A stretch of 64,000 bases of DNA from an uncultured Candidatus Saccharibacteria bacterium. GTDB lineage: Bacteria; Patescibacteriota; Minisyncoccia; Phycocordibacterales; PALSA-1337. Positions 3,796 through 64,000 of this stretch are shown here, one piece after another. The translations under genes and the position numbers were made by a program. Under the pieces are notes generated by a model. The model did no database searches and was not told the DNA's origin. It worked only from the letters and a program-made list of their open reading frames with translations. The stretch is from positions 425 to 64,424 of the forward strand of contig CAZHHB010000004.1 of NCBI GenBank assembly GCA_964532285.1, in the 5' to 3' direction. The first letter of the stretch is position 1. Each line of letters starts with the position of its first letter.

Positions 3796-5238
3796 TTATT
3801 TAATTTTTTTATTTTTCTTCTTACCCATCCCTCGGATGGGCAATGTTACATAAAAGGTGGTACCGAAGTTTTCTCGTGGTGATTTGAACCAGATTTTTCC
3901 TCCAGAGTTCTCCACGATTGATTTTACAATGTAGAGACCGAGACCTGTCCCATCGGTATCCATTCCTCTCACATTGTCCGCACGAAACAGCTTTGTGAAT
4001 ATTTTATCCTGCTGATTTCTGGGAATACCATATCCAGTGTCAGAGATTTTGATTTGAATTTTATCCTTCTCTGATAATGAAAGCATAAATTTTATTGCAC
4101 CATCTTTGGGAGTGTATTTTACCGAGTTTGATAGGATATTCTGCATAACCATTCGTAGAAGTTTCGGATCTGCTTGTATGTATGAAATTTTTTTCTCACA
4201 TGAAAATGAGAATCTTATTTTTTTCGTATTAATTTCTGGTTTCTGCTCATTTATTACACTTAACGCTAGTTTACGAATATCAGTTGTTTTGGGCTCAATC
4301 ACAAATGTTCCTAGTTCAAGACGAGAGACATCCAGAAGAGCATTCACAAGCTCAACCATTCTTTGGTTGCTACGGTATACCTCATCCAAATATTTTTTTT
4401 GTTTTCTATTTAGTTTTCCAACATCTCCAGCCAGAAGCATCTCTGTATACCAATTGACGGTAGAGAGTGGGGTACGAAGTTGATGTGATGCGAGTGAGAC
4501 AAATTCGGTCTTCGCCTTATCGACTGCTCGCTCGTTCGTGATATCTCGGAAAACCTTGATTGTCCCCATGACCTTTTTGTTGAGGATGACCGGCGTCACA
4601 GTGATTGCTACGGGTATCTTTATGCCATCTCTTCGCACATTGAAGTAAGTGGTTCCTGTCGTGGTAATGCCGTCTTTCAAGGCCATGTTTACTGGATGTT
4701 TCTCTGACAGAATGGGCGCACCCCTTTTGTCTTCCAAAAGAGCTATTTCGGAAAAATGTTTCCCCAAAACTTCATCATTTTTATTATCAAGTATTTTTTG
4801 AGCAGTTTTATTTATTAGGATGATGTTTCCTCTTTCATCGGTTGCCATGAGACCATCACCTATGGAAAGTAAAATCGCTCCTTCTTTTGCACTGACAATT
4901 TCTAGGCTTTTTGTGCGTTCAAGGACTTTTCTTTCCAATGTCTCGTGAGATTTCTTGAGTTTTTCTGCCGTCACCACCAGTTTTCGTCGAACACCCTCTC
5001 TCTCTCGGGCAGTTACAGCGAGTTTCTCCGCTGTTGTTGCTAATTTTGCCGCAGTCACAGCAAGTTTGCGCCTGACGCTTTCTTTTTCTCTAGCAGTTAT
5101 GGCGAGTTTCTCCGCTGTTGCTGCCAGCTTTGCCGCGGTCACAGCCAGCTTGCGTCGGACATCTTCTTTTTCTCTAGCCAAAATCCTCAGATTGAGGATA
5201 ATGTCATCGGATGTGGAAATAGTAGTTTTTTTATTCAT
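3796..5238 (-). CDS. Sensor histidine kinase: coiled-coil repeat N-terminus, PAS, HisKA, HATPase_c
   Basis: The H-box 'SHQLRTPL', N-box 'NILSNSVKYT' and G-boxes 'DTGYGIP' / 'GTGLGLYIV' are present. A PAS-like segment ('ILLSIGDGLMATDERGNIILINKTAQ') precedes the HisKA domain. The N-terminus is made of tandem 26-aa repeats. Confidence 0.8.
   Translation of the reverse strand: MNKKTTISTSDDIILNLRILAREKEDVRRKLAVTAAKLAATAEKLAITAREKESVRRKLAVTAAKLATTAEKLAVTAREREGVRRKLVVTAEKLKKSHETLERKVLERTKSLEIVSAKEGAILLSIGDGLMATDERGNIILINKTAQKILDNKNDEVLGKHFSEIALLEDKRGAPILSEKHPVNMALKDGITTTGTTYFNVRRDGIKIPVAITVTPVILNKKVMGTIKVFRDITNERAVDKAKTEFVSLASHQLRTPLSTVNWYTEMLLAGDVGKLNRKQKKYLDEVYRSNQRMVELVNALLDVSRLELGTFVIEPKTTDIRKLALSVINEQKPEINTKKIRFSFSCEKKISYIQADPKLLRMVMQNILSNSVKYTPKDGAIKFMLSLSEKDKIQIKISDTGYGIPRNQQDKIFTKLFRADNVRGMDTDGTGLGLYIVKSIVENSGGKIWFKSPRENFGTTFYVTLPIRGMGKKKNKKIK
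4960..5175 (-). repeat. Tandem ~78-bp coding repeats (about 3 units) at the histidine-kinase N-terminus
   Basis: The amino-acid unit 'RKLAVTAAKLA(A/T)TAEKLA(I/V)TAREKE(D/S/G)VR' repeats. The corresponding DNA repeats are visible at 4980-5200. Confidence 0.7.
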
Positions 5239-9888: not shown

Positions 9889-10857
9889 GTGAAAATACAT
9901 TTACCAAATAGCGCATTTCTGGGTAATATTAACTCATTTCTTAGAAGTTTCGATTCATCTTCCCCAGATGAACTAATAGTTACTTCTAATAATAAATGGG
10001 TATCAGTTCATCCCGTCGTCATTGCAATGGTCGCCGCTCTAGGTAAGGGTATATCTGCCCAAAAGCTTAGATTCGAAGCTTTTGAAGCAAAGTCCAAGCA
10101 TTATTTTGAGAGAATAGGTCTATTTCGTTTTTTGGGTAAAGACTCAGGCATTTCAATAACAAAACATGATTCCTCTGGTCGTTTTATCCCTATAACAAAG
10201 ATTAAAAATTCTAACGAACAGAGTAAGTTCATTACGGAAATGATTCCTCTTTTACATCTCGCGGACAACCCTAGACAAGCAGAACCCATTCAGTATATTG
10301 TTGGTGAGTTGGTGAGAAATGTTATTGAACATTCTCAATCTAAGGACGGTGCTATAGTTTGTGCTCAATATTACAAAAAAAGTAACACTATCAGGATTGG
10401 AATTGTTGACGGGGGTGTTGGTATTAAAAAAACAATAACCCGTTCCCATCAAGCCGTAGATGACTTTGAAGCCATTAAACTTGCTCTAATGCCAGGTATA
10501 ACAGGCACAACAAGAAAGGAGGGTGGTACTGCTGAAAATGTTGGAGCTGGATTGTTTTTTATCAAATCCATTGCTCATGTGAACCGCGATTTTTTCTTAA
10601 TATATAGCGGTCAGGCAATGTTTAAATTACTTAAAAGACCCCTTGAAGGATCAGTGTTTTTACAGGCTGACCCTCTTCAAGACAGACATTCTAAAGAAAA
10701 AATGCTTCCATATTGGAATGGAACTGTTGTGGGGATAGATATATCTCTAGATAATACAAAAGAATTCTCTGTCATCTTGGATTTGATTCGTAATACATAT
10801 GCGACATCAGTTAGAGAGAGGAGAAAAGAAAAGTATAGAAAACCTAAATTTATATGA
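9889..10857 (+). CDS. GHKL/Bergerat-fold ATPase, histidine-kinase-like ATP-binding protein with ~130-aa N-terminal extension
   Basis: N-box 'ELVRNVIEH', G1 'VDGGVGI' and G2 'GTAENVGAGLF' are present, and the ATP-binding core resembles anti-sigma-factor kinases (RsbW/SpoIIAB). GTG start. The stop overlaps the next gene as ATGA. Confidence 0.6.
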   Translation: MKIHLPNSAFLGNINSFLRSFDSSSPDELIVTSNNKWVSVHPVVIAMVAALGKGISAQKLRFEAFEAKSKHYFERIGLFRFLGKDSGISITKHDSSGRFIPITKIKNSNEQSKFITEMIPLLHLADNPRQAEPIQYIVGELVRNVIEHSQSKDGAIVCAQYYKKSNTIRIGIVDGGVGIKKTITRSHQAVDDFEAIKLALMPGITGTTRKEGGTAENVGAGLFFIKSIAHVNRDFFLIYSGQAMFKLLKRPLEGSVFLQADPLQDRHSKEKMLPYWNGTVVGIDISLDNTKEFSVILDLIRNTYATSVRERRKEKYRKPKFI

Positions 10858-11990: not shown

Positions 11991-12644
11991 ATGAATACAA
12001 GACGAATAATATTTTGGTCCATCTTTGTCCTAGTCCTGGGATTGATAATCTGGGGACTTGCAGCCGCTATCAACAAATCTTCAAATGGAGGCTTGAAATT
12101 GGCCGCTCCAGCGCCTGTTAGCGCCACAGATCATGTTCGTGGCCCTTCAGATGCGCCAGTTACACTCATAGAATACGGTGATTTCCAGTGTCCTGCTTGT
12201 GCCGCTTATTTTCCTTTGATTGAGAGACTATTCAATGAATCCTCCACAACCCTTCGTATGGTTTCTCGCAATTTTCCACTTACTCAACACGCAAATGCCA
12301 TTCCTTCCGCCTTGGCGGCAGAAGCTGCTGGTATGCAAGGGAAGTATTGGGAGATGTTCAAGTCTCTGTATGAGAATCATGACGAATGGGCCGAAGTCAA
12401 AGACGCTTCTCCTCTATTTGAAAAGTACGCTAGCGAGATCGGTTTGAATATTGAAACCTTCAAGATAGATCTGAAAAATCCCGATCTTAGAAAAAAGATT
12501 GAGGATGATCGTGATGAGGGTATTCATATCGGCATAAATCATACGCCGACATTCTTCGTAAATGGTAAAGAGGTAGTTGATATCCAAAACTATGAACAAT
12601 TTAAAGAACTTATTCAAACAGCCGCTCAAGAAAGTTCCAAATAG
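11991..12644 (+). CDS. DsbA-like thiol:disulfide oxidoreductase (thioredoxin fold), membrane-anchored
   Basis: CxxC active site 'FQCPACAAY' in a DsbA-family context, with an N-terminal TM segment. Confidence 0.7.
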   Translation: MNTRRIIFWSIFVLVLGLIIWGLAAAINKSSNGGLKLAAPAPVSATDHVRGPSDAPVTLIEYGDFQCPACAAYFPLIERLFNESSTTLRMVSRNFPLTQHANAIPSALAAEAAGMQGKYWEMFKSLYENHDEWAEVKDASPLFEKYASEIGLNIETFKIDLKNPDLRKKIEDDRDEGIHIGINHTPTFFVNGKEVVDIQNYEQFKELIQTAAQESSK

Positions 12645-16884: not shown

Positions 16885-17577
16885 ATGAAAATGGGCAAAT
16901 TAGCCCAAGGAGATAAGATTATGAACACAGAATTCATGATTGCAGAAGTAACGCCAGGGAAACTGAATGCGCTGGTAAAAAATATCATGCGTCAAACAGG
17001 CGAAACTGATCCCAATGAAGCTGTACGTCTCGTTAATTCGGGTGAGTGGGTAGTTTCGAAACCGACTCGCAACTGGCGCGAACAAGACGGCGTCATCTAC
17101 TTCTCGGTCACCAGCGATGGCACGACCGGCGAGGACTGGATCACCCGGCTCGAAAGCAAAGGCTTCCGCGTGGGTGACTACGCCAAGCAGGTGCTTCGTT
17201 CGCCGGACTTCAAGCCGACCAGTGGCATGACGACCGAAGTCGCCGTTCTCAAGGGCATGCTCTTCGAGGACAACGATCGGATCACGAAGAAGATTCGCGC
17301 CGAGGCAGACAAGCGCAAGCTGTCCAAGCCGAACGCCGAACTGGCCTGCCTCATCCGTGAGAAGTTCACGGACAAGGAGATTGAAGCGATGGGTCTGTGG
17401 TACATCGTTGCTATGCACGAGCCCATCAACGACTCCGATGGCGATCCGCGCCTCCTCCTCGCTTCCCGCGCTGACGATGGTCGGTGGCTGGATGCGTACT
17501 GCGGCAACCCTGGCCGCAGGTGGAGTCGTGGGCGCGGTTTTGCCTTCGTCGTCCCGCAAGTCAGTTCTCAACACTAA
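16885..17577 (+). CDS. DGR target protein (variable C-terminus, degenerate C-type-lectin/FGE-like ending 'GFAFVVPQ'); GC-rich
   Basis: The last ~45 codons form the VR. An SD 'AGGGGAA' precedes the ATG at 16885 (alternative ATG at 16921). No signal peptide is visible. The body of the gene is much more GC-rich than neighbouring genes. Confidence 0.7.
   Translation: MKMGKLAQGDKIMNTEFMIAEVTPGKLNALVKNIMRQTGETDPNEAVRLVNSGEWVVSKPTRNWREQDGVIYFSVTSDGTTGEDWITRLESKGFRVGDYAKQVLRSPDFKPTSGMTTEVAVLKGMLFEDNDRITKKIRAEADKRKLSKPNAELACLIREKFTDKEIEAMGLWYIVAMHEPINDSDGDPRLLLASRADDGRWLDAYCGNPGRRWSRGRGFAFVVPQVSSQH
17434..17560 (+). repeat. DGR variable repeat (VR)
   Basis: Aligns base-for-base with 17994-18120. All 18 mismatches are at positions where the TR has A. 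The resulting codon changes include AAC(N)->CGC/CTC/TCC/GAT/AGT and TAC(Y)->TGC. Confidence 0.9.
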
Positions 17578-17616
17578 GATCCTCGGGACTTTAGTCCCTT
17601 TGACCTTTGCACTTTG

Positions 17617-17645
17617 GCCCGGCATCACGCAAGTGATGTCCGGGC
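17617..17645 (+). promoter_or_regulatory. GC-rich hairpin about 55 nt downstream of the VR (candidate DGR target-recognition hairpin/cruciform)
   Basis: GCCCGGCATCAC-GCAA-GTGATGTCCGGGC, an 11-12-bp stem with one bulged T. Confidence 0.4.
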
Positions 17646-17993
17646 TAAATTTATGCTAGAATTTTATATGGTAGTAGGCGAATCATGCGGGCGGTTATGA
17701 CTTCCCGCGGCCGAATCCAGTATCCATGAGCTGAGAGCGAGAGCGGTCAGCCCAGTAGGCGAATCAGCAGATTCGCTCTTGGAGTAAATTCTACTGAATC
17801 AGGCTTCTCTCGGAGGGCTCATGTAGACACTTCATCCTTTGACAAGCTCGAGACGATCCTGAGCAAATCGAAGGATCAAAAAATGAAGCTACTTGGTGCA
17901 AGGTGCTATGGCATTATAATAATGCCAAATTCGATTCAACTCTGAGATCGCGTAAGCTTCAAAGGGTGGTGGCATGGAAGGCCTTATGCACAT

Positions 17994-18120
17994 TCCGATG
18001 GCGATCCGAACCTCCTCAACGCTAACCGCGATGACGATGGTCGGTGGCTGAATGCGTACTACGACAACCCTGACAACAGGTGGAATCGTGAGAACGGTTT
18101 TGCCTTCGTCGTCCCGCAAA
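17994..18120 (+). repeat. DGR template repeat (TR), invariant donor copy
   Basis: A non-coding remnant of the target C-terminus with no in-frame start. It carries adenines, including several AAC codons, at every site that differs in the VR. Confidence 0.9.
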
Positions 18121-18125
18121 TCTCT

Positions 18126-18512
18126 TCATTTCTTCCCCGCTTTTGTGGGGAAGTTTTGTTTATCTCGAGCTGTGTCCAAAGTTTTTGTAAGCTGGCCATT
18201 CCAACCTCCTAGATCTCTCCCAACCCCATCTAACTTTATAGAAAGTGCGATATACTTCTTGTCATCCAGTGATTTTGTTTCCCACAGGATCATTAGTAAT
18301 ATTTTCAGTGCATCTAGTTTCTTTATGGACAGGCGCACATACGGATGTTTCTCTTGTGGTGACAAGAAACCCGCTGCCGCGACAGATTCTATGATTTCTA
18401 CGAATAAAGTATCGATTCTGTATCCGAAAGAGTTCCTATTAAATTTCGGTAAATCTTTGTAAAAACCATGCCATAACAAATAAGTATCTTTGACCTTATT
18501 CAAAACAGGCAA
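18126..18512 (-). CDS. avd: Avd-like DGR accessory protein (four-helix-bundle / '23S rRNA intervening-sequence protein' family)
   Basis: 128 aa, basic and helical: 'KVKDTYLLWHGFYKDLPKFNRNSFGYRIDTLFVEIIESVAAAGF'. Size and family match Bordetella-phage bAvd. It is divergently oriented to the RT. Confidence 0.6.
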   Translation of the reverse strand: MPVLNKVKDTYLLWHGFYKDLPKFNRNSFGYRIDTLFVEIIESVAAAGFLSPQEKHPYVRLSIKKLDALKILLMILWETKSLDDKKYIALSIKLDGVGRDLGGWNGQLTKTLDTARDKQNFPTKAGKK

Positions 18513-18521
18513 AATTCGGTT

Positions 18522-18531
18522 GGGGGGGGGG
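18522..18531 (+). repeat. Homopolymeric G10 tract in the avd/RT divergent promoter region
   Basis: GGGGGGGGGG lies between the avd start (18512, minus strand) and the RT start (18542). Confidence 0.9.
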
Positions 18532-18541
18532 TCTTCATAGT

Positions 18542-19573
18542 TTGCGACGGATTCAGTTCAATCATACATACAATGATATCATTTCATTAGAAAATCTTCT
18601 TGAAGCATGGAAGGAATTCGTGAGAGGTAAGCGGAGTAAAAAGGATGTTCAGGAATTTGAACATGATCTGATGAGTAATATCATCTCACTTCATCGTGAT
18701 CTTGCGGCGAAAACCTATGAACATTCCGCATATGAATTCTTCAGAATTTCAGATCCCAAACCGCGCGATATTCATAAAGCGAAGGTAAGAGATAGGTTAT
18801 TACATCACGCCATTCATAGGAAATTGTACCCATTCTTCAATAAAACATTTATTGCGGATTCTTTCTCATGCCGACTTAAAAAGGGAACACATAGAGCCAT
18901 AGATAGATTTCGTACTTTTTCTTACAAGGTCTCAGAAAATCATACCAAGACAGTATGGGTACTCAAATGTGACATTAGAAAATTCTTTGCTTCAGTCGAT
19001 CAAGCCATACTTCTCGGTATTTTAAATAATTACATAAAAGACAAAGACATTCTCATGTTACTTTCGAAAGTCGTGGGCAGTTTTTATTCAACAGAGAAGG
19101 GTGTTGGTTTACCACTTGGTAATCTCACCTCTCAATTATTCGTGAATATTTACATGAATGAATTTGACCAGTTTATGAAACATAAAATAAAGGCAAGATA
19201 TTACATAAGATATGCGGATGATTTTGTTGTTTTTTCACAAGATAAGCCATGGCTTCACGGTATTATTTCGGAGATTACAGGTTTTCTTCTTAATAGACTG
19301 AAACTTCATCTCCATCCGAACAAGATATCTATAAGTACTATTGCTTCGGGTATTGATTATTTGGGTTGGGTCAATTTTCCAGATCACAGAGTCTTGAGGA
19401 CGAAGACCAAGAAGAGAATGTTTAGAAACATAAAAGCGAAAGGCGGAAAAGAAGAAACAGTTCAGTCGTATCTGGGTCTCATCAGCCATGGCAATAGCTG
19501 GAAGTTGCGACAGGAAATTATAAAATCACAGCCATTGACTTCAGTCGTATTTGGGTATATTATCCACATGTAA
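18542..19573 (+). CDS. DGR-type reverse transcriptase
   Basis: Motif 4 'LPLGNLTSQLFVNIY' is the DGR hallmark [I/L]GxxxSQ, essentially the Bordetella bRT 'IGNLTSQ'. Motif 5 is 'YIRYADDFVVF'. Also present is 'PKPRDIHKAKVRDRLLHHAIH'. TTG start at 18542, with an in-frame stop immediately upstream. Confidence 0.85.
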   Translation: MRRIQFNHTYNDIISLENLLEAWKEFVRGKRSKKDVQEFEHDLMSNIISLHRDLAAKTYEHSAYEFFRISDPKPRDIHKAKVRDRLLHHAIHRKLYPFFNKTFIADSFSCRLKKGTHRAIDRFRTFSYKVSENHTKTVWVLKCDIRKFFASVDQAILLGILNNYIKDKDILMLLSKVVGSFYSTEKGVGLPLGNLTSQLFVNIYMNEFDQFMKHKIKARYYIRYADDFVVFSQDKPWLHGIISEITGFLLNRLKLHLHPNKISISTIASGIDYLGWVNFPDHRVLRTKTKKRMFRNIKAKGGKEETVQSYLGLISHGNSWKLRQEIIKSQPLTSVVFGYIIHM

Positions 19574-20810: not shown

Positions 20811-20976
20811 TATCTAGGCAAACATAACAAGCGTGTTTTCGAGACAGCCGAGGACCTGTCTGAGCAGAGTATAAATTGCTAGGTTTTTGTGCTCGGACTG
20901 CCAGATGCCCCGTGAGCACAAAAACCTTGCAATTTAACGATAGCGAGTCCCGCAGGCTGGCGAGAAAACACACTTG

Positions 20977-21486
20977 TTACGTTTGCCTGATTACTGAATA
21001 TTCCGACAACACTGCTCCACTCTCTGTCTTTATTGATTCTATAAGTGTTAATCTGTAGTCGAGGTCTTCCTTGAATAACCTGATCCCGTCGCCGAATATT
21101 ACTGGTTCAACAGTCAAATAGAGTTTGTCTACTAAACCGGATTTCATAAACATTGTGTATATCTGTGAACCTCCGCAGATAGCTACTTCTTTGAAACCGC
21201 GATTTTCCAAAACTTTTAATAAATCTGCGGGACTCTTTGTGGTGAGTTCAACGCCTTCTGGTAAATTTTCAATTGGTTCAGGTGAATAGACGATAGTCAG
21301 GCGATCTTTCAGTGCTTTGCCGATAGTTTTCCAGGTATTTTGACCCATGACTACTACACCCGCGCGTTTCGTCATCTCCACGAAGCGCTTTTTGTCGTCC
21401 TTACCAGTCCAAACTGTGGATGGAACGGTAGGATTTTTCGCAATATATCCGTCTGCCGTCAAGGCTACAATGATGAAACAAGTCAT
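20977..21486 (-). CDS. Dihydrofolate reductase family protein (DHFR / RibD C-terminal-like)
   Basis: 'MTCFIIVALTADGYIAKNPTVPSTVWTGKDDKKRFVEMTKRAGVVVMGQNTW...LYLTVEPVIFGDGIRLF'. Confidence 0.65.
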   Translation of the reverse strand: MTCFIIVALTADGYIAKNPTVPSTVWTGKDDKKRFVEMTKRAGVVVMGQNTWKTIGKALKDRLTIVYSPEPIENLPEGVELTTKSPADLLKVLENRGFKEVAICGGSQIYTMFMKSGLVDKLYLTVEPVIFGDGIRLFKEDLDYRLTLIESIKTESGAVLSEYSVIRQT

Positions 21487-25837: not shown

Positions 25838-25876
25838 GGGCCGTCGCAGCGTTTTCGCGCGACGGCCCTCTTTTTA
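25838..25876 (+). terminator. Strong rho-independent terminator in a 530-bp non-coding region, with no upstream plus-strand gene
   Basis: GGGCCGTCGCGC...GCGCGACGGCCC stem followed by TCTTTTT. Confidence 0.55.
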
Positions 25877-33312: not shown

Positions 33313-36300
33313 TTGGACATGACTATTCAAAAGATGGAAGACGAAAATAAGAAAAAAGAAATACAGAAAAGTCAGAGTGCTCTCCGCGAAGAGCGTATTT
33401 TGGCATATTGGAATGAGAAAGATATTTTCAAGAAAACCTTAGAGAAACCTGCGCCTAAGGGAACTTACACATTCTATGATGGACCGCCTTTCGCTACGGG
33501 GACTCCGCATTATGGTCATATTCTAGCCAGTACGATCAAGGACGCTGTACCAAGGTTTTGGACTATGAGGGGTTACAAGATTCCACGCCGTTGGGGTTGG
33601 GATTGCCACGGTTTACCTGTAGAAAATCTCATAGAAAAAGAATTAAATTTGAAGACAAAGAAAGACATAATCAGTTATGGTATAGGAAAGTTCAATGACG
33701 GAGCACGTTCTGCTGTTATGCGTTATGCAGATGAATGGCGCAAGATTATCCCACGCCTCGGTCGTTTCGTAGATATGGATGACGATTATCGCACTATGGA
33801 TGCGAGCTATACCGAAACTGTTTGGTGGACATTCAAACGCCTATACGACAAAGGGTTGATTTATGAGGGGTTCAAGTCTATGAGTCTATGTCCGCGATGT
33901 GAGACTACATTGTCAAACTTTGAGGTTGCTCAGGGTTACAAAGATATAACTGATATTTCGGTTTATGTGAAGTTTAAAATTAAATCTCAAAAATTAAATC
34001 TCAAAAATGAGGCACAGGATTCATTGGGGAATGTTTATTTGATCGCCTGGACGACCACCCCATGGACCTTGCCGGGTAATGTGGCTTTGGCTGTAAATCC
34101 AGATATTGAATATTGCAAAGTGAAGATTACAGAGTCCGCAAGGGGAGACGGTGTTTCATCTGCGGGAGATTTGTTAATCGTCGCCAAGTCTAGATTGGTG
34201 GCTTTGAAAGATATCAAGTACGAGATTGTGGAGACTTTCAAAGGTTCCGACCTTGTGGGCGAATCTTACGAGTCATTATTTGATTATTACTCCAAAGACT
34301 CTGAGTTGAAGAATAGGGAAAATGGTTGGAGGGTGTACGGTGCAGATTTTGTTACGACCGAAGATGGAACTGGTGTGGTGCACATCGCTCCAGCTTTTGG
34401 TGCTGACGATTATGAAATGCTCACGAAACACGATTTGCCTTTTGTTCAACATGTGACGACAGGCGGCCATTTCAAAAAGGAAGTTACTGATTTTGCCGGT
34501 ATAGCGGTAAAGCCTAAGGCTGTTGAGGGAGAAAAGGATGCAAACCAAAAGGCCGATATCGAGATCATCAAATGGCTTGCTCATCGTGGTGGTCTGTTCG
34601 CAAAGGAGAAAATAGTTCATTCATATCCGCACTGTTGGCGCTGTGACACCCCACTTTTGAATTACGCCGCTTCCTCATGGTTTGTAAAAGTGACAGACCT
34701 GAAAGACAAACTGGTAGCTGAAAATAAAAAAGTGAAATGGACGCCGCCTGAGATTGGTGAAGGAAGATTTGGTAATTGGCTGTCGGGTGCGCGCGATTGG
34801 GCAATATCGCGTTCTAGATTCTGGGGAGCACCTATACCTGTCTGGAAAGAAGAGAAGACTGGAGTTTGCCATGTTCTCGGCTCAGTAGGGGATTTGAAAA
34901 AATTCAGTAAAGCCAAGAATACATATTATGTCATGCGTCATGGACAAGCAGACAATAATGTTAAAGGTATTTTGAGTAATGATATTGCTGATCCGTATCA
35001 TCTGACAGATGAAGGTCGGAAACAAGTGGCGGAGACGGCTGATAGATTGAAAGGGGTCAAGTTCGATGAAATATTCGTCTCACCTTTTGTCAGAACTAGA
35101 GAGACAGCTAATATTGTGAAAGAGAAACTTGGCTGGAAAGATGAAGATATGCATGTTGATGAGAGGATTCGTGAACTCGGATCAGGAGTTTTTGCTGGCA
35201 AGAGTGTGGAGGAATTTTCACAAGTTTTCCCATTCAGAGAGAGATTTACAAAATGTCCAGAAGGAGGTGAGACCTATGCCGATATCAAGAAGCGCATGGG
35301 AGATTTCCTCTACGATATGGAGAGTAAGTATTCGGGGAAGACCATCATGATAGTCAGTCATGAGACCTCGTCATACCTGCTTGTTGCGGCGGCTATGGGA
35401 CTGAATAGGGAACAAACACTTGATCTGCGTGGTGACTGTGATTTCATGGCCAATGCTGAATGTAGGAAGATAGAATTCTCACCCCTACCACACAACGCCG
35501 AATATGAATTAGATCTACATCGTCCTTATATTGATGATGTTGATTTGAGGACTCATCATGGAGACAAGTTGATGCGAGTTCAGGATGTCTTTGATTGTTG
35601 GTATGAATCAGGGTCCATGCCTTATGGTGAAGCTCATTATCCATTTGAGAATACTGAACAATTTGAACCGGCTTCTGGTCTATTTAAAAAATCTGTAGGT
35701 TTCCCAGCCGACTTCATTGCTGAAGGAGTAGATCAGACACGCGGGTGGTTCTATTCAATGATGGTTTTGGGTGTTGCTCTATTCGGCAAATCTCCATACA
35801 AGAGAGTTGTCGTCAACGGATTGGTCTTGGCTGAAGATGGTCAGAAGATGTCGAAATCAAAGAATAATTTCCCAGATCCGATCTTGATCTTTGATAAATA
35901 CGGCGTTGATGCACTCAGATATTATCTACTTTCATCACCACTTCTGAAGGCAGAAGATCTGAATTTCTCTGAGAAGGATGTAGATCTAATAAATAAAAAG
36001 ATCGTTATGCGCTTAGACAATGTCGTATCATTTTATAAATTATATGAGACTTCTCAAAAATCCGAGCCAAAGTCTCAGGTTTCTACAAATGTTCTGGATA
36101 TTTGGATCACAACAAGGTTGGATGAACTTGCAAGCGAAATAACCAAAGCGATGGAAAAATATGAGCTTGATAAGGCGACAAGGCCTATCGCTGATTTTGT
36201 GGATGATCTATCTACCTGGTACTTACGTCGTTCACGAGACAGGTTCAAAGGAGATGATTTGTCGGACAAGGAAAGTGCTTTGAATACCACCAGATATGTC

Positions 36301-36870
36301 CTGTTGGAAACAGCCAAGCTGATCGCTCCATTCATGCCTTTCTTGGCAGAAGATATATATAAGCAAGTGGGAGGGGCGAAGGAAAGTGTGCATTTGGAAG
36401 ATTGGCCAACGACGGAGAAAGTTGATGCCAATATTCTTGATGAAATGAGAGCTGTTCGAGCCATTGCTTCATCTGGTTTGGAGGCGCGCACCGTCGCCAA
36501 GATCAATATTCGTCAACCTCTAGCAACCATGGAGGTCAAGAGTAATAGGAAATTGGGAGAACAACTTGTAGAGCTTTTGAAAGATGAGGTCAATGTAAAG
36601 AGGGTGGTATTCGGTGCGGATATTGATAAAGAAGCGACCTTGGATATGAATATTACTCCGGAACTCAAAGAAGAAGGTCAGGTGCGTGAATTGTTACGCA
36701 CCATTCAAGATCTTCGCAAGGAGAAGGGGCTTAAGGTGGGGGATAAAGCGACACTTACTGTTACAGATGATATGAAAGATTTAGTTTCGCGCCATGAAAA
36801 AGAAATAATGAAGGCGACGGGATTGGAGCAGATAGAATATGGCGACAAAATGGAGATCGCGACGCCGTGA
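33313..36870 (+). CDS. ileS: Isoleucyl-tRNA synthetase (type 2) with an inserted histidine-phosphatase (PGAM-like) domain
   Basis: 'PHYGHILAS', 'WDCHGLPVE', 'WAISRSRFWGAPIP' and 'KMSKSKNN' are all present. Between 'PIPVWKEE' and 'DVFDCWYESGS' there are about 250 aa, versus about 60 in typical IleRS. The extra segment carries 'VMRHGQADN', 'VSPFVRTRETA' and 'IVSHETS'. Confidence 0.85.
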   Translation: MDMTIQKMEDENKKKEIQKSQSALREERILAYWNEKDIFKKTLEKPAPKGTYTFYDGPPFATGTPHYGHILASTIKDAVPRFWTMRGYKIPRRWGWDCHGLPVENLIEKELNLKTKKDIISYGIGKFNDGARSAVMRYADEWRKIIPRLGRFVDMDDDYRTMDASYTETVWWTFKRLYDKGLIYEGFKSMSLCPRCETTLSNFEVAQGYKDITDISVYVKFKIKSQKLNLKNEAQDSLGNVYLIAWTTTPWTLPGNVALAVNPDIEYCKVKITESARGDGVSSAGDLLIVAKSRLVALKDIKYEIVETFKGSDLVGESYESLFDYYSKDSELKNRENGWRVYGADFVTTEDGTGVVHIAPAFGADDYEMLTKHDLPFVQHVTTGGHFKKEVTDFAGIAVKPKAVEGEKDANQKADIEIIKWLAHRGGLFAKEKIVHSYPHCWRCDTPLLNYAASSWFVKVTDLKDKLVAENKKVKWTPPEIGEGRFGNWLSGARDWAISRSRFWGAPIPVWKEEKTGVCHVLGSVGDLKKFSKAKNTYYVMRHGQADNNVKGILSNDIADPYHLTDEGRKQVAETADRLKGVKFDEIFVSPFVRTRETANIVKEKLGWKDEDMHVDERIRELGSGVFAGKSVEEFSQVFPFRERFTKCPEGGETYADIKKRMGDFLYDMESKYSGKTIMIVSHETSSYLLVAAAMGLNREQTLDLRGDCDFMANAECRKIEFSPLPHNAEYELDLHRPYIDDVDLRTHHGDKLMRVQDVFDCWYESGSMPYGEAHYPFENTEQFEPASGLFKKSVGFPADFIAEGVDQTRGWFYSMMVLGVALFGKSPYKRVVVNGLVLAEDGQKMSKSKNNFPDPILIFDKYGVDALRYYLLSSPLLKAEDLNFSEKDVDLINKKIVMRLDNVVSFYKLYETSQKSEPKSQVSTNVLDIWITTRLDELASEITKAMEKYELDKATRPIADFVDDLSTWYLRRSRDRFKGDDLSDKESALNTTRYVLLETAKLIAPFMPFLAEDIYKQVGGAKESVHLEDWPTTEKVDANILDEMRAVRAIASSGLEARTVAKINIRQPLATMEVKSNRKLGEQLVELLKDEVNVKRVVFGADIDKEATLDMNITPELKEEGQVRELLRTIQDLRKEKGLKVGDKATLTVTDDMKDLVSRHEKEIMKATGLEQIEYGDKMEIATP

Positions 36871-36871
36871 A

Positions 36872-37007
36872 TCAGGTGAATATTGTTTCGAGCGCAGCTG
36901 CGTGTTAGTCTTCCGAGTCATTGGCTGGCGAGCCATAGTCTGCCTCAGAGAAGCATAGACTGACGCACCCATCGCATACTCGCAGTCGCTCGAAACAATA
37001 TTCACCT
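36872..37007. repeat. Long inverted repeat (24-bp perfect arms around an ~88-nt loop) between ileS and recO, followed by two 19-bp direct repeats
   Basis: ATCAGGTGAATATTGTTTCGAGCG at 36872-36895 pairs with CGCTCGAAACAATATTCACCTGAT at 36984-37007. GATTCACGGCAACTCACAG occurs at 37005-37023 and again at 37060-37078. Confidence 0.8.
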
Positions 37008-37093
37008 GATTCACGGCAACTCACAGACAGCATTAATCATGCAGCTGCGCCCAAAGTAGTACCTGTCAGATTCACGGCAACTCACAGCAACCC

Positions 37094-46056: not shown

Positions 46057-46106
46057 GATTTTATCAGGAATTTATCTCTTTTTTATCAGGAATTTATCTT
46101 TGTTTG
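46011..46106. repeat. Composite repeat: twin palindrome (copy 4) plus tandem 'TTATCAGGAATTTATCT' x2 module
   Basis: ACCAAGATCCGATCTCGGTATACCAAGATCCGATCTTGG, then TTATCAGGAATTTATCTCTTTTTTATCAGGAATTTATCTTTGTTTG. The same ~95-bp composite occurs at 56835-56920. Confidence 0.85.
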
Positions 46107-46290
46107 CTAGAGTTCTCTTAGATCTTTGAAATTTCATCTATGATTATTTTGTTCATAACCCTTGCGTTACGGGTCATTTATGTGGTAGCCTCATATTAAT
46201 TATAAGTAATCGCGGTAAGTCCCAAGAGTCTTGAATAATAAGACTATGGGTCCCGAAGGAGAAATCCGAGGGTCACTGACCGCAAAAAAT

Positions 46291-47342: not shown

Positions 47343-47546
47343 ATGAAAAAGCAGTGTTATTTCAGTCAACATAATATAAAGCATATAGATTACAAGGATA
47401 CAGACATCCTTCGTAAGTTCTTGAATCCGCACGGACGAGTCTTGTCCCGCAAGCGTACAGGTATCTCAGCAAAGTATCAGCGTCAACTCGGCACAGCTGT
47501 AAAGCGCGCGAGGTTCATGGGGCTTCTGCCGTATGTAGCGAGGTAA
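47343..47546 (+). CDS. rpsR: 30S ribosomal protein S18
   Basis: 'IDYKDTDILRKFLNPHGRVLSRKRTGISAKYQRQLGTAVKRARFMGLLPY'. Confidence 0.85.
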   Translation: MKKQCYFSQHNIKHIDYKDTDILRKFLNPHGRVLSRKRTGISAKYQRQLGTAVKRARFMGLLPYVAR

Positions 47547-47560
47547 AAGTAGAGAATGCA

Positions 47561-47729
47561 AAAAGGAACAGTTGTAATTTTTAGTTACCTGCGAGACTCG
47601 CTCCGTGAAATTGCTAGGTAAAAGGCTCAGGAATTGTAAACAATTCCAACGACATTCGCCTTTTACCAAGCAATTTCTACTGCGCTCAGACAAGGTTCTC
47701 GGCAACTAAAAATTACAATTGTTCCTTTT
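47561..47729. repeat. Copy A of a ~110-bp conserved core (47590-47700) nested in the loop of the rpsR/efp bidirectional terminator palindrome
   Basis: Outer arms GGAACAGTTGTAATTTTTAGTTACC / GGCAACTAAAAATTACAATTGTTCC, with T-runs on both strands. The core 'CCTGCGAGACTCGCTCCGTGAAATTGCTAGGTAAAAGGCTCAGGAATTGTAAACAATTCCAACGACATTCGCCTTTTACCAAGCAATTTCTACTGCGCTCAGACAAGGTTCTCGGC' is about 96% identical to 53137-53245. Confidence 0.8.
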
Positions 47730-47731
47730 TG

Positions 47732-48304
47732 TTACTTACCAACTCTTTCTCGGTACTCACCGTTCTCTGTATTTATCCTGATGACATCTCCTTCGTTGAC
47801 GAAGAGGGGAACATTGATCGTTGTACCAGTTTCTAGGGTCACAGTCTTCTGACCGCCTGTAGCGGTGTCGCCTTTGACATTTGGAGGGGCTTCGGTGACC
47901 TTGAGTTCGGCTGTGATGGGCATTATGAATCCCATAGGTTGCTCTTTAAATAAGAGCTGTTTGACGATAGTATTTACCTTGAGGAATCTACCTTGCGGTC
48001 CTACTATCTCTTCGGATACCTTGAATCTGGCACTAGGATTGGTTGGGTCAGTGAACCACCATTCATCGCGGTTGTTATAGAGATATTTGACCTCTTTTTC
48101 CTCTATCTCGGCCTCCTCCACCTTCTCAGATTGATGGAATGAGTACTCGGTAACCTTGCCTGTCATGAGGTTCTTGAGTTTGGTGGCGTTGACGGGCTTG
48201 CGCTGTTGTTTGCGGAAGACATGTGAAGATATGACTTCATAAGGCTGACCATCCAAGACGATGTATTTCTTCTCGGTTATTTCGCTGTATTCTAGGAGTG
48301 ACAT
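47732..48304 (-). CDS. efp: Elongation factor P
   Basis: 'MSLLEYSEITEKKYIVLDGQPYEV...KPVNATKLKNLMTGKVTEYSF'. Confidence 0.85.
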   Translation of the reverse strand: MSLLEYSEITEKKYIVLDGQPYEVISSHVFRKQQRKPVNATKLKNLMTGKVTEYSFHQSEKVEEAEIEEKEVKYLYNNRDEWWFTDPTNPSARFKVSEEIVGPQGRFLKVNTIVKQLLFKEQPMGFIMPITAELKVTEAPPNVKGDTATGGQKTVTLETGTTINVPLFVNEGDVIRINTENGEYRERVGK

Positions 48305-50829: not shown

Positions 50830-53079
50830 CTAAACTTTCTCCTCAATTGATTCTGTGACAGGAACACTATCTTCTTGCTCAACACCCGCACCTACGCCGA
50901 TAATCTCGCGAGGTTTGGAACCATTAGCAGGACCTATCACTCCATGCTCCTCCAGCATGTCCATAAGTTTGGCGGCACGAGAATATCCTACACCCAATTT
51001 CCTCTGAATGTAAGAAGTTGAAGCTTTACCGGCTGATGATACAGCTTCACGAGCGGATTCGTAGAGCTCGTCCTCTTCTTCGGAATCATCGCCAATCATA
51101 GAATCAAAAGCGGCGCTGGCACCAGCTTCTGTTGGCGTGAGACTGATCTCGCTCATGATCTCGTCTTTGTAGGTATCAGTCAGATGCTTTACTACGCGCT
51201 TTACCTCGGATTCGGATATGAATGCTGATTGTAGGCGAACAGGTTTGGACATCTCGCCTCCGAGATAGAGCATGTCACCGGCACCTAGAAGTTTCTCTGC
51301 ACCCATCTGGTCTAGAATGGTTCTGGAATCAATCTGTGATGATACTTGTAGGGCAATGCGACTTGGTATGTTGGCCTTGATGAGTCCGGTGATGACATTG
51401 ACACTTGGGCGTTGGGTTGAGATGACGAGGTGTATGCCGATAGCACGACTCATCTGGGCGAGACGGACGATCGCCGCTTCAAGCTCTCGTGGATATGCCT
51501 GCATGATATCTGCCAATTCATCGATCACGATGACGATATAGGGCATGGTTTCTGGAAGTACAGTTGCCTCTTTGTTGTCTGCGCCACCTTGTTGTTTGTA
51601 TTTTGCTAATGCTGGAGCCAAAATGTTCTTGTGATATGAGTCAATATCACGAGCAGAATTTTGCTCCAAAATATTGTATCTACGACTCATTTCTTTTGCG
51701 GCCCATTTCAAAGCCAAGATAGCTTTCTTGGGATCGGTGATAACTGGTGTCAAAAGATGTGGAATCTTGTTGTACAAGGTGAGCTCTACACGCTTCGGAT
51801 CTATCATGATGAATTTCATGTTCTCCGGAGAATTGCGATACAGAAGGGAGGTGATGAGAGCGTGAATGCTTACAGATTTGCCTGAGCCGGTTGTTCCTGC
51901 AATGAGCATGTGTGGAGCTTTGCTCAAATTACTAAAATGCGCTTTGCCGGTAATGTCTTTGCCAAGAGACATCAGTAGAGGCTTCTCTGATTCTTGGAAT
52001 TCAGATGCGGAAAGTAGAGTTGCGAGTCCGACTGTTGTCTTGGCTGTGTTTGGAACTTCTATACCGACTAGGGATTTGCCTGGGATAGGGGCTTCTATAC
52101 GGATAGGGTGGGCGGCCAGAGCTAGAGCTAGATCATTGTTCAGCCCGATTATTCTGGATAGTTTCACCCCCTCAGCTGGCTTCAAGGCATAACGAGTAAC
52201 TGATGGTCCGATGGAGATCTCATCCATTTCTACGGTTATGCCGAAATTTTGCAAAGTACGCTTGATGATATTTGCATTGGCTTTTATGTCACCTGTCTCT
52301 GGTTTGCCACGATCCTTCTCCAATAGAGACAACGGTGGGGGAGTGAATGGTAGGAGGTGTGGCAAGATGACCGAGGAAGCAAAAGTGGCTTCTTCGGCGT
52401 CGGTGAAATCCAAAAGACCTTTCTTTACAACCTTCGCTTTATTATCAGTTTCTGTGCGAGGTTTGATATCGTTTGCTATGGCTGGGGTTCCTTGTGTGGC
52501 GGCTACGGCTTTGTTGATAGCGGCATTCTCATAGTCATCCATCTCACCATTTTTCTTCTTTGGTATGGCAACATCCTCATCCTTTTTCTTCCAAAACATT
52601 AGATCATTTAGATTGAAGGACACATTGAATGTCATTATCACAGAGATGATCAATACGGCGATGAGTATGGCGGTCGTGGCCCAGTAATCTATAAATTTCA
52701 GAAATGGGCTAGCGATCAGATGACCGATAACACCTCCTGCGTTGGCGACGACGACATGGATGAGGCCCAGTCCTGATACGAGGAATAAGAAGGCTCCTAT
52801 ACCCTTGGATATCTCAAATTTCCTCTTCATGCCCTGGAGGAAGGTGATGCCGAGCATGGCGGCAGTTATAGGTATCAAGTAATATCCGATGCCGAATAGT
52901 TTGGAAAAGACACGAAAGCCATATTCTCCTACGGGACCAGCTTTGCCGAAAGCAGCTAGTACTGTTATGACAGTTATAAGGAATGAAACTATGGCTAGTA
53001 TTACTTGGACAGTTTCGTCCTTCATCTCATCCCAGAATCTTATTTTTTTACCGAGGTCGTAATCTTTTTTCTTTGCCAT
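50830..53079 (-). CDS. ftsK: DNA translocase FtsK/SpoIIIE
   Basis: N-terminal TM domain, Walker A 'GTTGSGKS', and a C-terminal gamma winged helix 'YIQRKLGVGYSRAAKLMDMLEEHGVIG'. The start was placed at ATG 53079 ('MAKKKDYDL'); the upstream in-frame extension to 53133 overlaps a repeat arm. Confidence 0.85.
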   Translation of the reverse strand: MAKKKDYDLGKKIRFWDEMKDETVQVILAIVSFLITVITVLAAFGKAGPVGEYGFRVFSKLFGIGYYLIPITAAMLGITFLQGMKRKFEISKGIGAFLFLVSGLGLIHVVVANAGGVIGHLIASPFLKFIDYWATTAILIAVLIISVIMTFNVSFNLNDLMFWKKKDEDVAIPKKKNGEMDDYENAAINKAVAATQGTPAIANDIKPRTETDNKAKVVKKGLLDFTDAEEATFASSVILPHLLPFTPPPLSLLEKDRGKPETGDIKANANIIKRTLQNFGITVEMDEISIGPSVTRYALKPAEGVKLSRIIGLNNDLALALAAHPIRIEAPIPGKSLVGIEVPNTAKTTVGLATLLSASEFQESEKPLLMSLGKDITGKAHFSNLSKAPHMLIAGTTGSGKSVSIHALITSLLYRNSPENMKFIMIDPKRVELTLYNKIPHLLTPVITDPKKAILALKWAAKEMSRRYNILEQNSARDIDSYHKNILAPALAKYKQQGGADNKEATVLPETMPYIVIVIDELADIMQAYPRELEAAIVRLAQMSRAIGIHLVISTQRPSVNVITGLIKANIPSRIALQVSSQIDSRTILDQMGAEKLLGAGDMLYLGGEMSKPVRLQSAFISESEVKRVVKHLTDTYKDEIMSEISLTPTEAGASAAFDSMIGDDSEEEDELYESAREAVSSAGKASTSYIQRKLGVGYSRAAKLMDMLEEHGVIGPANGSKPREIIGVGAGVEQEDSVPVTESIEEKV

Positions 53080-53114
53080 GGTGTAATGATAACATAAAAA
53101 TGTGCGAACCCTAA

Positions 53115-53267
53115 CAAACAGGTTTCCTTGCAAGCCTGCGAGACTCGCTCCGTGAAATTGCTAGGTAAAAGGCTCAGGAATTATAAATAATTCCAACGAC
53201 GTTCGCCTTTTACCAAGCAATTTCTACTGCGCTCAAACAAGTTCTCGGCTTGCAAGGAAACCTGTTT
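53115..53267. repeat. Copy B of the ~110-bp conserved core (53137-53245) nested in an unrelated perfect 22-bp palindrome
   Basis: Outer arms CAAACAGGTTTCCTTGCAAGCC / GGCTTGCAAGGAAACCTGTTTG. The core differs from copy A at about 5 positions. It sits in the divergent region between ftsK and the 53441 gene. Confidence 0.8.
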
Positions 53268-53440
53268 GTTGGAGTTCGACCAGGAAAGGCCCCTCACTTC
53301 GTTCGGGACGCCCACTTTAAAAAAAGTGGGCGCTTGCAACTTACTTTTTAAAGACTATAATGGGCATGTCTCATAAGAGGGGAAATTGATTTTTTATCAA
53401 GGACAAAGATAAAATCTATAAAAGACATACATTTACGATA

Positions 53441-54244
53441 ATGGACAACAAAGAGACAAACAATCAGCCTTCGTTTAATGATCCAATAAACTGGAAATCC
53501 CTTGGGTTTTTTTCTGCTGAAGACTATCTAATATACATTTTCAAAAAGACAGAAAGGATCACTGCGGGTTTGTATCTAGTTTCAGGACTACTAAAGGACG
53601 AGGAGCCACTCAAGTGGGAAATGCGAGACAAGGGAATAGACCTTTTGTCTTCGTCCTTTTCTGCTTCAAACTCTCTGCCTGGTGACAAGAGTGCTATTAT
53701 TCAATCTTTGTTTACGGCGGCACTAGAAACTCTATCTCTGTTGAATGTGGCCCGTATTTCAAACCTTATTTCAGAGATGAATCACAAATTACTAGTTAGG
53801 GAAGTTGATCATATTGTCGGCATGCTCCGTGACAGACTGGCTCAGAGTGCAGAAAATGCTGGATATGTATTGTCAGAGTCATTCTTTAGGACACCAGATT
53901 TATTCTCATCAGGCTTCAGGTCTGCCAATAAGACAGGTGGAAGTATCAATCAGGGGATGAATAAGAGACATGAAACTGGGGACTACGCTAGTAATGATAG
54001 TAGTAACTATGTTAAATCAAGTGCAAATAAAGGACATGTTGATGTTCAAGCAAAAAAGACACAGAGACAGAGCGTTATTTTGAGCGTGCTTAAAGGTCAA
54101 TCCAATCTTACAGTCAAGGACTTCACTAAAGTTATAAAAGATTGCAGTGAGAAAACTATCCAGCGCGAGCTGATCGATTTGGTAGAAAAGGGCATAGTTA
54201 AGCGGGAGGGGGAGCGGAGATGGAGTAGGTATTCGCTTAGGTAG
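53441..54244 (+). CDS. Hypothetical protein with C-terminal winged-helix DNA-binding-like domain
   Basis: C-terminus 'QSVILSVLKGQSNLTVKDFTKVIKDCSEKTIQRELIDLVEKGIVKREGERRWSRYSL'. Confidence 0.4.
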   Translation: MDNKETNNQPSFNDPINWKSLGFFSAEDYLIYIFKKTERITAGLYLVSGLLKDEEPLKWEMRDKGIDLLSSSFSASNSLPGDKSAIIQSLFTAALETLSLLNVARISNLISEMNHKLLVREVDHIVGMLRDRLAQSAENAGYVLSESFFRTPDLFSSGFRSANKTGGSINQGMNKRHETGDYASNDSSNYVKSSANKGHVDVQAKKTQRQSVILSVLKGQSNLTVKDFTKVIKDCSEKTIQRELIDLVEKGIVKREGERRWSRYSLR

Positions 54245-56834: not shown

Positions 56835-56920
56835 CCAAGATCCGATCTTGGTATACCGAGATCCGATCTTGGACTTTATCAGGAATTTATCTCTTTTTTA
56901 TCAGGAATTTATCTTTGTTT
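56835..56920. repeat. Composite repeat: twin palindrome (copy 5) plus tandem 'TTATCAGGAATTTATCT' x2 module
   Basis: CCAAGATCCGATCTTGGTATACCGAGATCCGATCTTGG, then ACTTTATCAGGAATTTATCTCTTTTTTATCAGGAATTTATCTTTGTTTG. The downstream module is identical to 46061-46106. Confidence 0.85.
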
Positions 56921-56986
56921 GATACGATTCAGACATTATTTACGCTGAGCTTTGTCGAAGCATCGGCTTAATGTCGTATCAAAATT

Positions 56987-62672: not shown

Positions 62673-62979
62673 TATCTTACAGAATGATAATCATGTTAAA
62701 CCACTCAAAGACGCGGCCATAGCCACACTCCTTATGGGGCGTAGCTTGTAGCCGCTGAATAAAGCGGTTTTTCATTTCCAGGAGGAAAGCAGTTTGAAAA
62801 TTTCATACCAAAAGAAAGTAAAGAGTTCGTTTTTATTGAGTAAATAAAAATTGAACGGCTTATTCATTTTTCGGGTCGAAAGATGGGTAGGTGTGGATGT
62901 AGGTTTATAGCCCTACGACGCTCTGCTTTGCAGAGCTAAGAAGGGCAAGAACACACAGCGGTGTGTGGATTTCCTAGTA

Positions 62980-64000
<1,021 letters not shown>

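Follow-up and report, generated by a model that had tools for sequence, protein, structure and literature searches.

A lineage-specific family of intergenic hairpin repeats with a conserved internal loop in Paceibacteria

Introduction

The MITE-like ERIC/IRU, bcr1, and Correia-type elements are non-coding, intergenic, multi-copy repeats of 100–200 bp, each of which forms one long imperfect hairpin. They are often co-transcribed with their neighbours, and both compensatory substitutions and variable presence occur among them. The repeats of the REP/BIME-RAYT and IS200/IS605 PATE systems are likewise palindromic and intergenic, and are thought to be handled as folded single strands; REPs are 20–40 nt long with a conserved 5′ tetranucleotide, and PATEs keep distinct left- and right-end subterminal hairpins. 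In attC sites (57–141 nt), which have R″/R′ boxes at the base of the stem and lie in cassette arrays beside an integrase, the structure is conserved and the stem sequence is free, and the folded single strand is recognized through its unpaired bases. Among structured RNAs, 6S RNA is a rod of ~180 nt in which a large central bubble separates the closing helix from the terminal helix. The genomes of CPR/Patescibacteria are small and compact, and are considered to contain little mobile DNA and few known regulatory RNAs.

A first-pass annotation of a 64,000-nt stretch of such a genome (contig CAZHHB010000004.1; the whole stretch is referred to below as the window) had noted a ~110-bp core in the loops of two long palindromes. 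Here, we show that these two copies, A and B, are members of a lineage-specific intergenic hairpin-repeat family in Paceibacteria (Patescibacteria/CPR). The family is previously undescribed and is a new lineage-specific structured interspersed repeat. The ERIC, bcr1, and Correia-type hairpin repeats are the nearest known things, and share with it the general build, the compensatory substitutions, and the variable presence. In contrast to them, the family (A, B, C, and E) is least conserved at its termini and most conserved in its internal loop, no target-site duplication can be seen beside the copies, only three to four copies were seen, no cognate transposase is known, and the host belongs to the CPR. 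The 5′ tetranucleotide of REPs and the subterminal hairpins of PATEs are both missing, and, unlike in those systems, no Y1 HUH gene was present among the scanned open reading frames (ORFs) of the window. The likeness to attC sites lies in the conserved structure with free stem sequence; however, the neighbours of the family are core housekeeping genes, and its AAC...GTT motif, located 9–10 bp inside the stem, fits RYYYAAC/GTTRRRY only partly. The rod shape recalls 6S RNA, but the family differs from it in having no match to the Rfam 6S model, several copies at non-orthologous sites, no promoter of its own, and perfect closing stems of 31–34 bp.

Results

Copies A and B in the window

Copy A occupies positions 47559–47731 of the window and copy B positions 53105–53278, both on the plus strand, with scores of 143 and 139 bits, respectively, for covariance model R1. 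Their cores, which run from CC to GG at 47588–47702 and 53135–53248, are identical at 110 of 114 aligned positions (96%) and differ by four substitutions and one indel; the two nearly identical cores of the first-pass annotation were thus borne out. Two of the four substitutions compensate each other, replacing a G-C pair of the apical hairpin (47636/47641) by an A-T pair. For a 19-mer of the core, 0.04 occurrences would be expected in the window, and exactly two were found. The flanking inverted repeats are near-perfect, as had been noted, but are longer than the 22–25 bp then assigned to them. The inverted-repeat scan gave arms of 31 bp in A and 32 bp in B (53105–53136 and 53247–53278), each with 94% complementarity and with transitions as the only mismatches, and the perfect stretch in B is 24 bp instead of 22 bp. 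Both copies fold as long rods on either strand (−79.5 to −94.3 kcal/mol, z = −10.9 to −13.2).

In copy A, the 31-nt 5′ arm of the closing stem P1 (47559–47589) carries the A-tract CAAAAAGG at its outer end and AACAG 22 nt from the junction with the core. It is followed by the 5′ strand of an internal loop, TGCGAGACTCGCTCCGT (47590–47606), in which 15 of 17 columns are invariant among A, B, C, and E. The next segment (47607–47677) is formed by the 20-bp helix P2 (47607–47626 and 47658–47677), which has a conserved A.A mismatch and encloses the loop TCA / AACGACATTC and the helix P3 (GGAATTG-TAAA-CAATTCC, 47630–47647). The 3′ strand of the internal loop, TACTGCGCTCAGACAAGGTTCTC (47678–47700, 16 of 22 columns invariant), leads into the 31-nt 3′ arm of P1 (47701–47731), which ends in CCTTTTTG and abuts the efp stop codon.

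The gene order at A is rpsF-ssb-rpsR, the element, and the convergent efp, and the element takes up nearly the whole gap between the stop codons of rpsR (47544–47546) and efp (47732–47734). The A-run CAAAAAGG and the T-run CCTTTTTG lie on the outermost arms, and by eye the T-run CCTTTTTG follows the arm on both strands; the gene context and the T-runs on both strands that had been reported for this copy were confirmed. Copy B lies, as had also been reported, in the divergent region between ftsK (ATG at 53079, minus strand) and a 267-aa gene at 53441. It adjoins the start of ftsK, 25 nt upstream of the ATG and antisense to this gene.

Further members of the family

The family was searched for with nhmmer profiles of the two conserved loop strands, whose boxes CCTGCGRGACTCGCT and GCTCARACA are 70–100 nt apart, and with R1. 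Both methods recovered A, B, and a third copy, C, in the window, and a copy, E, in L011/L012; the earlier count of two copies therefore did not hold. Copy C (20816–20988, minus strand) is a diverged member that was also recognized by the inverted-repeat scan and by direct reading, and it scores 122 bits with the covariance model. It has 34-nt arms with a 4×4 internal loop, the same loop boxes, and a 23-bp P2 with compensatory changes, and is devoid of the J2/P3 module. This copy fills the convergent gap between rplK and a gene for a DHFR-like protein, and overlaps the final 12 nt of the DHFR-like ORF (20977–21486). Copy E (L011/L012, 16308–16503) is situated 43 nt upstream of metG in a different Paceibacteria genome, at a locus different from those of the window copies.

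A further left arm, F, was found in L024, a contig of another assembly of the window organism, where it is joined to a core identical to that of B. Positions 1–415 of L024 (ENA ERZ27247817 k141_798620) are identical to the window from the start of the B core onward. The upstream flank differs from the window and consists of an ordinary terminator and then ...TGATAGGCCCGACAGTAATGATTTTTTGGATA directly against the CC of the core. The B core and B right arm are thus joined to another left flank, which exposes a copy F beyond the window. This junction reflects either a chimeric assembly across the repeat or genuine recombination of two copies. The element is present in all same-species contigs, and the others among them end inside it.

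No further copy was found by nhmmer or R1 in the window (filters off) or in ~185 kb of relatives' loci (~250 kb in total), and the covariance model, which is strand-specific (143 versus 32 bits), detected none in ~145 kb of relatives outside the L011 genome. A 20-mer of the core that spans the variable top of P2 gave only a chance match, in an unrelated Spirulina locus, among genome and metagenome contigs. In viral contigs, a core 19-mer gave three chance matches and the two-box gapped pattern gave zero, and the core had no blastn match in the phage and plasmid collections. The copies observed amount to three to four per genome, at non-orthologous sites. These results support a multi-copy, non-coding, structure-forming element, as the first-pass annotation had proposed; it is not a segmental duplication. 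A hidden peptide was rejected because no reading frame is open across all copies.

Conserved architecture and covariation

A hand-curated structural alignment was made of A, B, C, and E, which are four full sequences and effectively three independent ones. The members are intergenic, 173–196 bp long, and built on a common plan: P1 of 31–34 bp, an asymmetric internal loop (17–18 and 22–23 nt), and P2 of 20–23 bp with the conserved A.A mismatch. The second loop (TCA / AASGACRTTC) and P3 are present in A, B, and E. The consensus of the internal loop is TGCGRGACTCGCT(A)YCGT for the 5′ strand and WACTSYGCTCARACARG(G)TYCTC for the 3′ strand, the latter also written.ACT..GCTCARACARG.TYCTC. Among the comparable columns of the internal loop, 31 of 39 are invariant, and the unpaired columns taken together give 42 of 52 (15/17, 3/3, 8/10, and 16/22 by strand).

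Standard pairs make up 95.4% of the 239 pair cells of the alignment, and 40 of the 64 stem pairs have undergone double-sided compensatory changes. In the control, none of 500 shuffles reached the observed values, and slid registers gave at most 12 such pairs. The third-codon identity between the window and L011 is 48–50%, which corresponds to saturation, yet the cores of A and E are 86% identical. It is therefore apparent that the stems turn over but stay complementary, whereas the loops are nearly constant across saturated synonymous divergence. Because the loops are conserved and the stem changes are paired across genomes that retain no neutral similarity, these results show that selection acts on the folded form and on the loop sequence. 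This form may be RNA or DNA: P1 contains four G.U pairs versus three A.C mismatches and P2 contains no one-sided change, and since G.U pairs are not in excess in this hand alignment of four sequences, a constraint on the palindrome at the DNA level fits equally well.

Arms and cores give discordant groupings

The inverted arms are present in every copy and are only 28–63% identical between copies. Each of the five known left arms is 31–34 nt long and has AACAR at 22–23 nt from the junction; a pyrimidine-rich (T-rich) tract lies closer to the junction than AACAR does. Gapped pairwise identity was uninformative, as shuffled arms also reach 0.67; the arms were therefore compared anchored at the junction, ungapped or with one indel as indicated, against shuffle controls. 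Similarity was significant for B-C (19/30, 63%, P < 0.0025), E-F (19/32, 59%, P < 0.0025), A-E (17/29, 59%, one indel, P < 0.0025), and A-C (17/29, 59%, one indel, P = 0.005). On the other hand, the A-B pair was not significant (28% ungapped; 12/29, 41%, with one indel, P = 0.25). The outer 8–10 bp of the arms are alike only between B and E (GAACTCC). The first-pass annotation had called the flanks of A and B completely different and unrelated; their dissimilarity stands, but "unrelated" does not once the other copies are compared. The constant arm length, the AACAR motif, the T-rich tract, and the significant pair similarities indicate that the arms belong to the element and, to judge from their sequences, are diverged homologues and not foreign palindromes.

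The cores group differently. Their identities are 96% for A-B, 86% for A-E, 79% for A-C, and 72% for B-C. As the arms of B are closest to those of C and its core is closest to that of A, B has C-like arms and an A-like core. The earlier suggestion that closing helices had been swapped around a maintained core is closer to these data than its alternative of a core that targets hairpin loops in unrelated palindromes, against which stand the likeness of the arms in length, motif, and sequence and the lack of empty arm-like palindromes. The inverted repeats listed for the window and for the loci of five relatives include none of the latter. The simplest reading of the discordance would be an exchange or homogenization of cores between diverged family members of one genome. 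The exchanged tract in B must end within ~6 nt of both junctions, a precision that keeps alive, at low probability, the reading of the core as a mobile unit. As guides or spacers, the arms had no convincing targets in the DNA searched: arm 18-mers (up to three mismatches) matched only themselves, save for a few scattered, isolated matches in the window, L011, L027, and L024.

Orthologous sites in relatives

By its RecA and DHFR-like homologues, the window belongs to Candidatus Paceibacterota. Syntenic loci of six other lineages were compared with the window; third-codon identity to the window is 40–52%, i.e., at saturation, in all five relatives for which it was compared. Sites A, B, and C are unoccupied among L010, L013, L015, L016, L025, and L031, all of which are distant genomes. 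At site A, L010 and L013 each have a short GC-rich bidirectional hairpin terminator, and L015 has no element, its efp and rpsR genes being directly adjacent. Site B is empty in L010, L011, and L013. Site C is a plain terminator in L025 and L031, the latter being the closest relative (its DHFR-like protein is 81% identical to that of the window). Site E is in turn unoccupied in the window, where another palindrome is found. The element sites thus vary in presence and absence between relatives, in agreement with the first-pass reading of the repeat as an element: the loci of the copies differ from genome to genome, and elsewhere ordinary terminators are present at the orthologous sites.

An AT-rich hairpin repeat unlike the A family, H2 (AAGTGCAAAATGCAAAGTT...), was found at 12353–12470 of L011 and at 10504–10617 and 16798–16911 of L027. 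It is specific to the L011 genome, with three copies in 41 kb, and two of these sit in the efp/rpsR and DHFR/rplK gaps, which are the sites of A and C.

Known RNA classes, partners, and signals

When the whole window was compared with Rfam 15 at gathering thresholds, only tRNA-His and 23S rRNA matched. At permissive E-values, A, C, and E gave only sub-threshold matches to long hairpins of the miRNA-precursor type (e.g., 33.9 bits against a gathering threshold of 211). The covariance search called for in the first-pass annotation therefore connects the core with no known housekeeping RNA family, and 5S, SRP, and 6S identities were ruled out by Rfam. Compared with the bacterial model, the 23S rRNA gene that starts in the window (62975–64000) contains several insertions, among them one of ~79 nt close to model position 283 and one of ~26 nt close to position 583.

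The same annotation had pointed to TnpA(Y1) or another transposase; a Pfam scan of 35 ORFs of the window found no Y1, HUH, or other transposase, recombinase, or nuclease partner. No end architecture with PATE/REP-type hairpins or a GTAG-type motif is visible in the element, no direct repeat was seen beside the arms of A, B, C, and E when the flanks were read directly for target-site duplications, and no clearly conserved terminal inverted repeat was seen among the copies. A protein search with six-frame translations of A and C found no predicted protein that overlaps a homologous element.

No promoter-like site was found inside any copy, and no terminator belongs consistently to the element. 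Canonical T-runs follow the stem only in A and are missing in C, B, and E; a consensus terminator scan, which considers loops of 3–8 nt only, reports none at A. No other terminator-like site was found in the gaps of A or C. Copy C is located at gene 3′ ends, and B and E are not, being located upstream of genes (25 and 43 nt from the ATG, respectively).

Other repeats and genes in the window

The only reverse transcriptase (RT) gene of the window (18542–19573, PF00078) lies at a distance of 1.2 kb from copy C, and none of the other copies (A, B, and E) has an RT gene beside it. It forms part of a complete diversity-generating retroelement (16885–19573), which comprises a target gene (16885–17577) with the variable repeat VR (17434–17567), the template repeat TR (17994–18127), and an Avd-like 136-aa ORF (18052–18462). 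The differences between TR and VR are all at TR adenines. This cassette is missing from the syntenic SIMPL-secE-nusG interval in L025 and L027.

A hairpin designated D (36864–37017), between ileS and recO, has perfect 31-bp arms separated by 92 nt. It shares the overall architecture of the family: ATCAG occurs at a distance of 24 nt from the junction, a T-rich tract is present, and on the minus strand the junction is immediately followed by CTGCGAG. The rest of the core is different, however, and with an E-value of ~1 for the covariance model, membership of D is not supported. The ileS/recO gap of L015 is only 12 nt. The adjacent isoleucyl-tRNA synthetase-like ORF (33313–36870, 1185 aa) has a His_Phos_1 domain inserted between the halves of its catalytic domain, an architecture recorded likewise for the orthologues of L015 and L027.

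REP-like repeats of ~43 nt each, composed of two 17-nt palindromes CCRAGATCNGATCTYGG joined by TATA, were found at 25874, 43477, 45185, 46006, 56829, 61712, and 62575. There are ten CCRAGATCNGATCTYGG palindromes in the window, two in L024, and none in the relatives' loci. One REP-like repeat is upstream of metG, the site that holds E in L011. Tandem TTTTTTATCAGGAATTTATCT repeats at 46057–46131 and 56872–56924, 96% identical between the two places, each directly follow a REP-like doublet, and the two may form a composite repeat. In L011 (9426–9541), two inverted, perfectly complementary 31-nt REP-like hairpins (TGTCATTCCCGCGAAGGCGGGAATCCAGGAT) are spaced 54 nt apart between ftsK and the next gene. 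A PAS/histidine-kinase ORF (3796–5238) contains two tandem 84-nt units (4960–5127, 74% identical).

Discussion

We propose that the element functions, and is under selection, in the form of a folded single strand, which would probably be RNA read through from neighbouring genes and could also be single-stranded DNA. The conserved internal loop between two helices of free sequence is a putative recognition site for a protein. The repeat would spread rarely as a non-autonomous DNA element; it occupies different loci in two lineages at saturated divergence, and five to six others lack it at the orthologous sites. Within one genome, the cores may be homogenized or swapped by recombination between copies, which would account for a 96–100% identical core on the three arm sets of A, B, and probably F. 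Where it lies between convergent genes (A and C), the element may replace the usual intrinsic terminator hairpin and probably ends or stabilizes the transcripts of the neighbouring genes. Taken as a whole, this account seems to us evenly balanced between right and wrong. Several observations weigh against it: no transposase, recombinase, or nuclease partner was present among the 35 scanned ORFs; target-site duplications and conserved terminal inverted repeats were not seen, and the copy number is low; B and E are upstream of genes and not at 3′ ends, and C has no T-run. In addition, the balance of G.U pairs and A.C mismatches in P1 and the absence of one-sided changes in P2 point more to DNA palindromy than to RNA covariation, and an exchange in B that ends within ~6 nt of both junctions is oddly precise for RecA gene conversion. 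The alignment behind the account consists of four full sequences, effectively three.

The copies could instead be paralogues of a trans-acting structured small RNA, such as a 6S-like or protein-sequestering rod RNA, with differing closing helices. A rod of 173–196 nt with a conserved 17/23-nt bubble between two covarying helices, the conservation of the loops across saturated divergence, and the strand-specific scores of the covariance model (143 versus 32 bits) agree with such an RNA. However, no internal promoter-like site and no consistent terminator of its own were found, an Rfam match, 6S included, is lacking even at E ≤ 10, and the 31–34-bp stems are nearly all Watson-Crick, with no excess of G.U pairs. 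Moreover, the genomes have three to four copies at non-orthologous sites, ~145 kb of relatives outside the L011 genome contain none, and C is without the whole J2/P3 module. We therefore regard this explanation as fairly unlikely.

A bolder version of core exchange is that the CC...GG core is a module passed between hairpin scaffolds of the family by structure-guided, homing-like, or folded-single-strand recombination; equivalently, the family would be the substrate of a new CPR enzyme that recognizes the conserved asymmetric internal loop of a long hairpin of DNA or RNA. We consider this unlikely.

A rather unlikely alternative is a non-mobile cis-acting RNA module, namely a bidirectional terminator, an RNase III site, or an mRNA 3′ stabilizer, whose copies arose by local recombination. 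It would explain why A and C are the only hairpins in two convergent gaps where relatives have plain terminators, why A is flanked by T-runs on both strands, and why, in the L011 genome, these two gaps contain another hairpin repeat. Termination, however, requires neither a conserved 40-nt internal loop nor 170 nt of sequence, B and E are in 5′ regions, T-runs are missing from C, B, and E, and homologous copies at non-orthologous loci in two genera imply movement of some form.

Insertion of a ~115-bp mobile core, PATE- or REP-like and served by a Y1 or other transposase, into pre-existing unrelated palindromes appears quite unlikely. The 96–100% identical cores of A, B, and the F contig on three arm sets, the beginning and end of this identity within a few nucleotides of the CC/GG junction, and the resemblance of the outermost A arm to the A/T tracts of terminators would follow from it. 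On the other hand, the arms are constant in length and share motifs and significant similarity even across genera, no empty arm-like palindrome was seen when the window and five relatives' loci were scanned for inverted repeats, unique perfect palindromes of 60–68 bp are not a background feature of the relatives, and no TnpA, RAYT, or other transposase was present among the scanned ORFs.

Finally, retron ncRNAs are bordered by variable inverted repeats and an RT gene is 1.2 kb from C, but it is very improbable that the element is the template or ncRNA of an RT system, similar to retron msr/msd, in which the arms would be a1/a2 and the RT at 18542–19573 would act in trans. This RT belongs to a complete diversity-generating retroelement with TR/VR differences only at TR adenines; nusG and rplK are located between it and C; no RT gene lies near A, B, or E; and the search with translated elements was empty.

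The unpaired loop sequence of the repeat has been held nearly constant while about 60 base pairs turned over with compensation, across saturated synonymous divergence. Such an element is either a functional motif of RNA or single-stranded DNA to which a protein partner is dedicated, or a selfish element that is recognized through its structure in an unusual way, and either option would extend the very short list of characterized non-coding elements in the CPR radiation. The gaps between convergent genes in these genomes are repeatedly colonized by long hairpin repeats that replace ordinary terminators, and the repeat explains the breaks or mis-joins of this organism's assemblies at the element sites. 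If the core is indeed exchangeable, or if an enzyme recognizes the loop, ultra-small bacteria would possess, in this family, a structure-specific mobile or regulatory system of a new kind.
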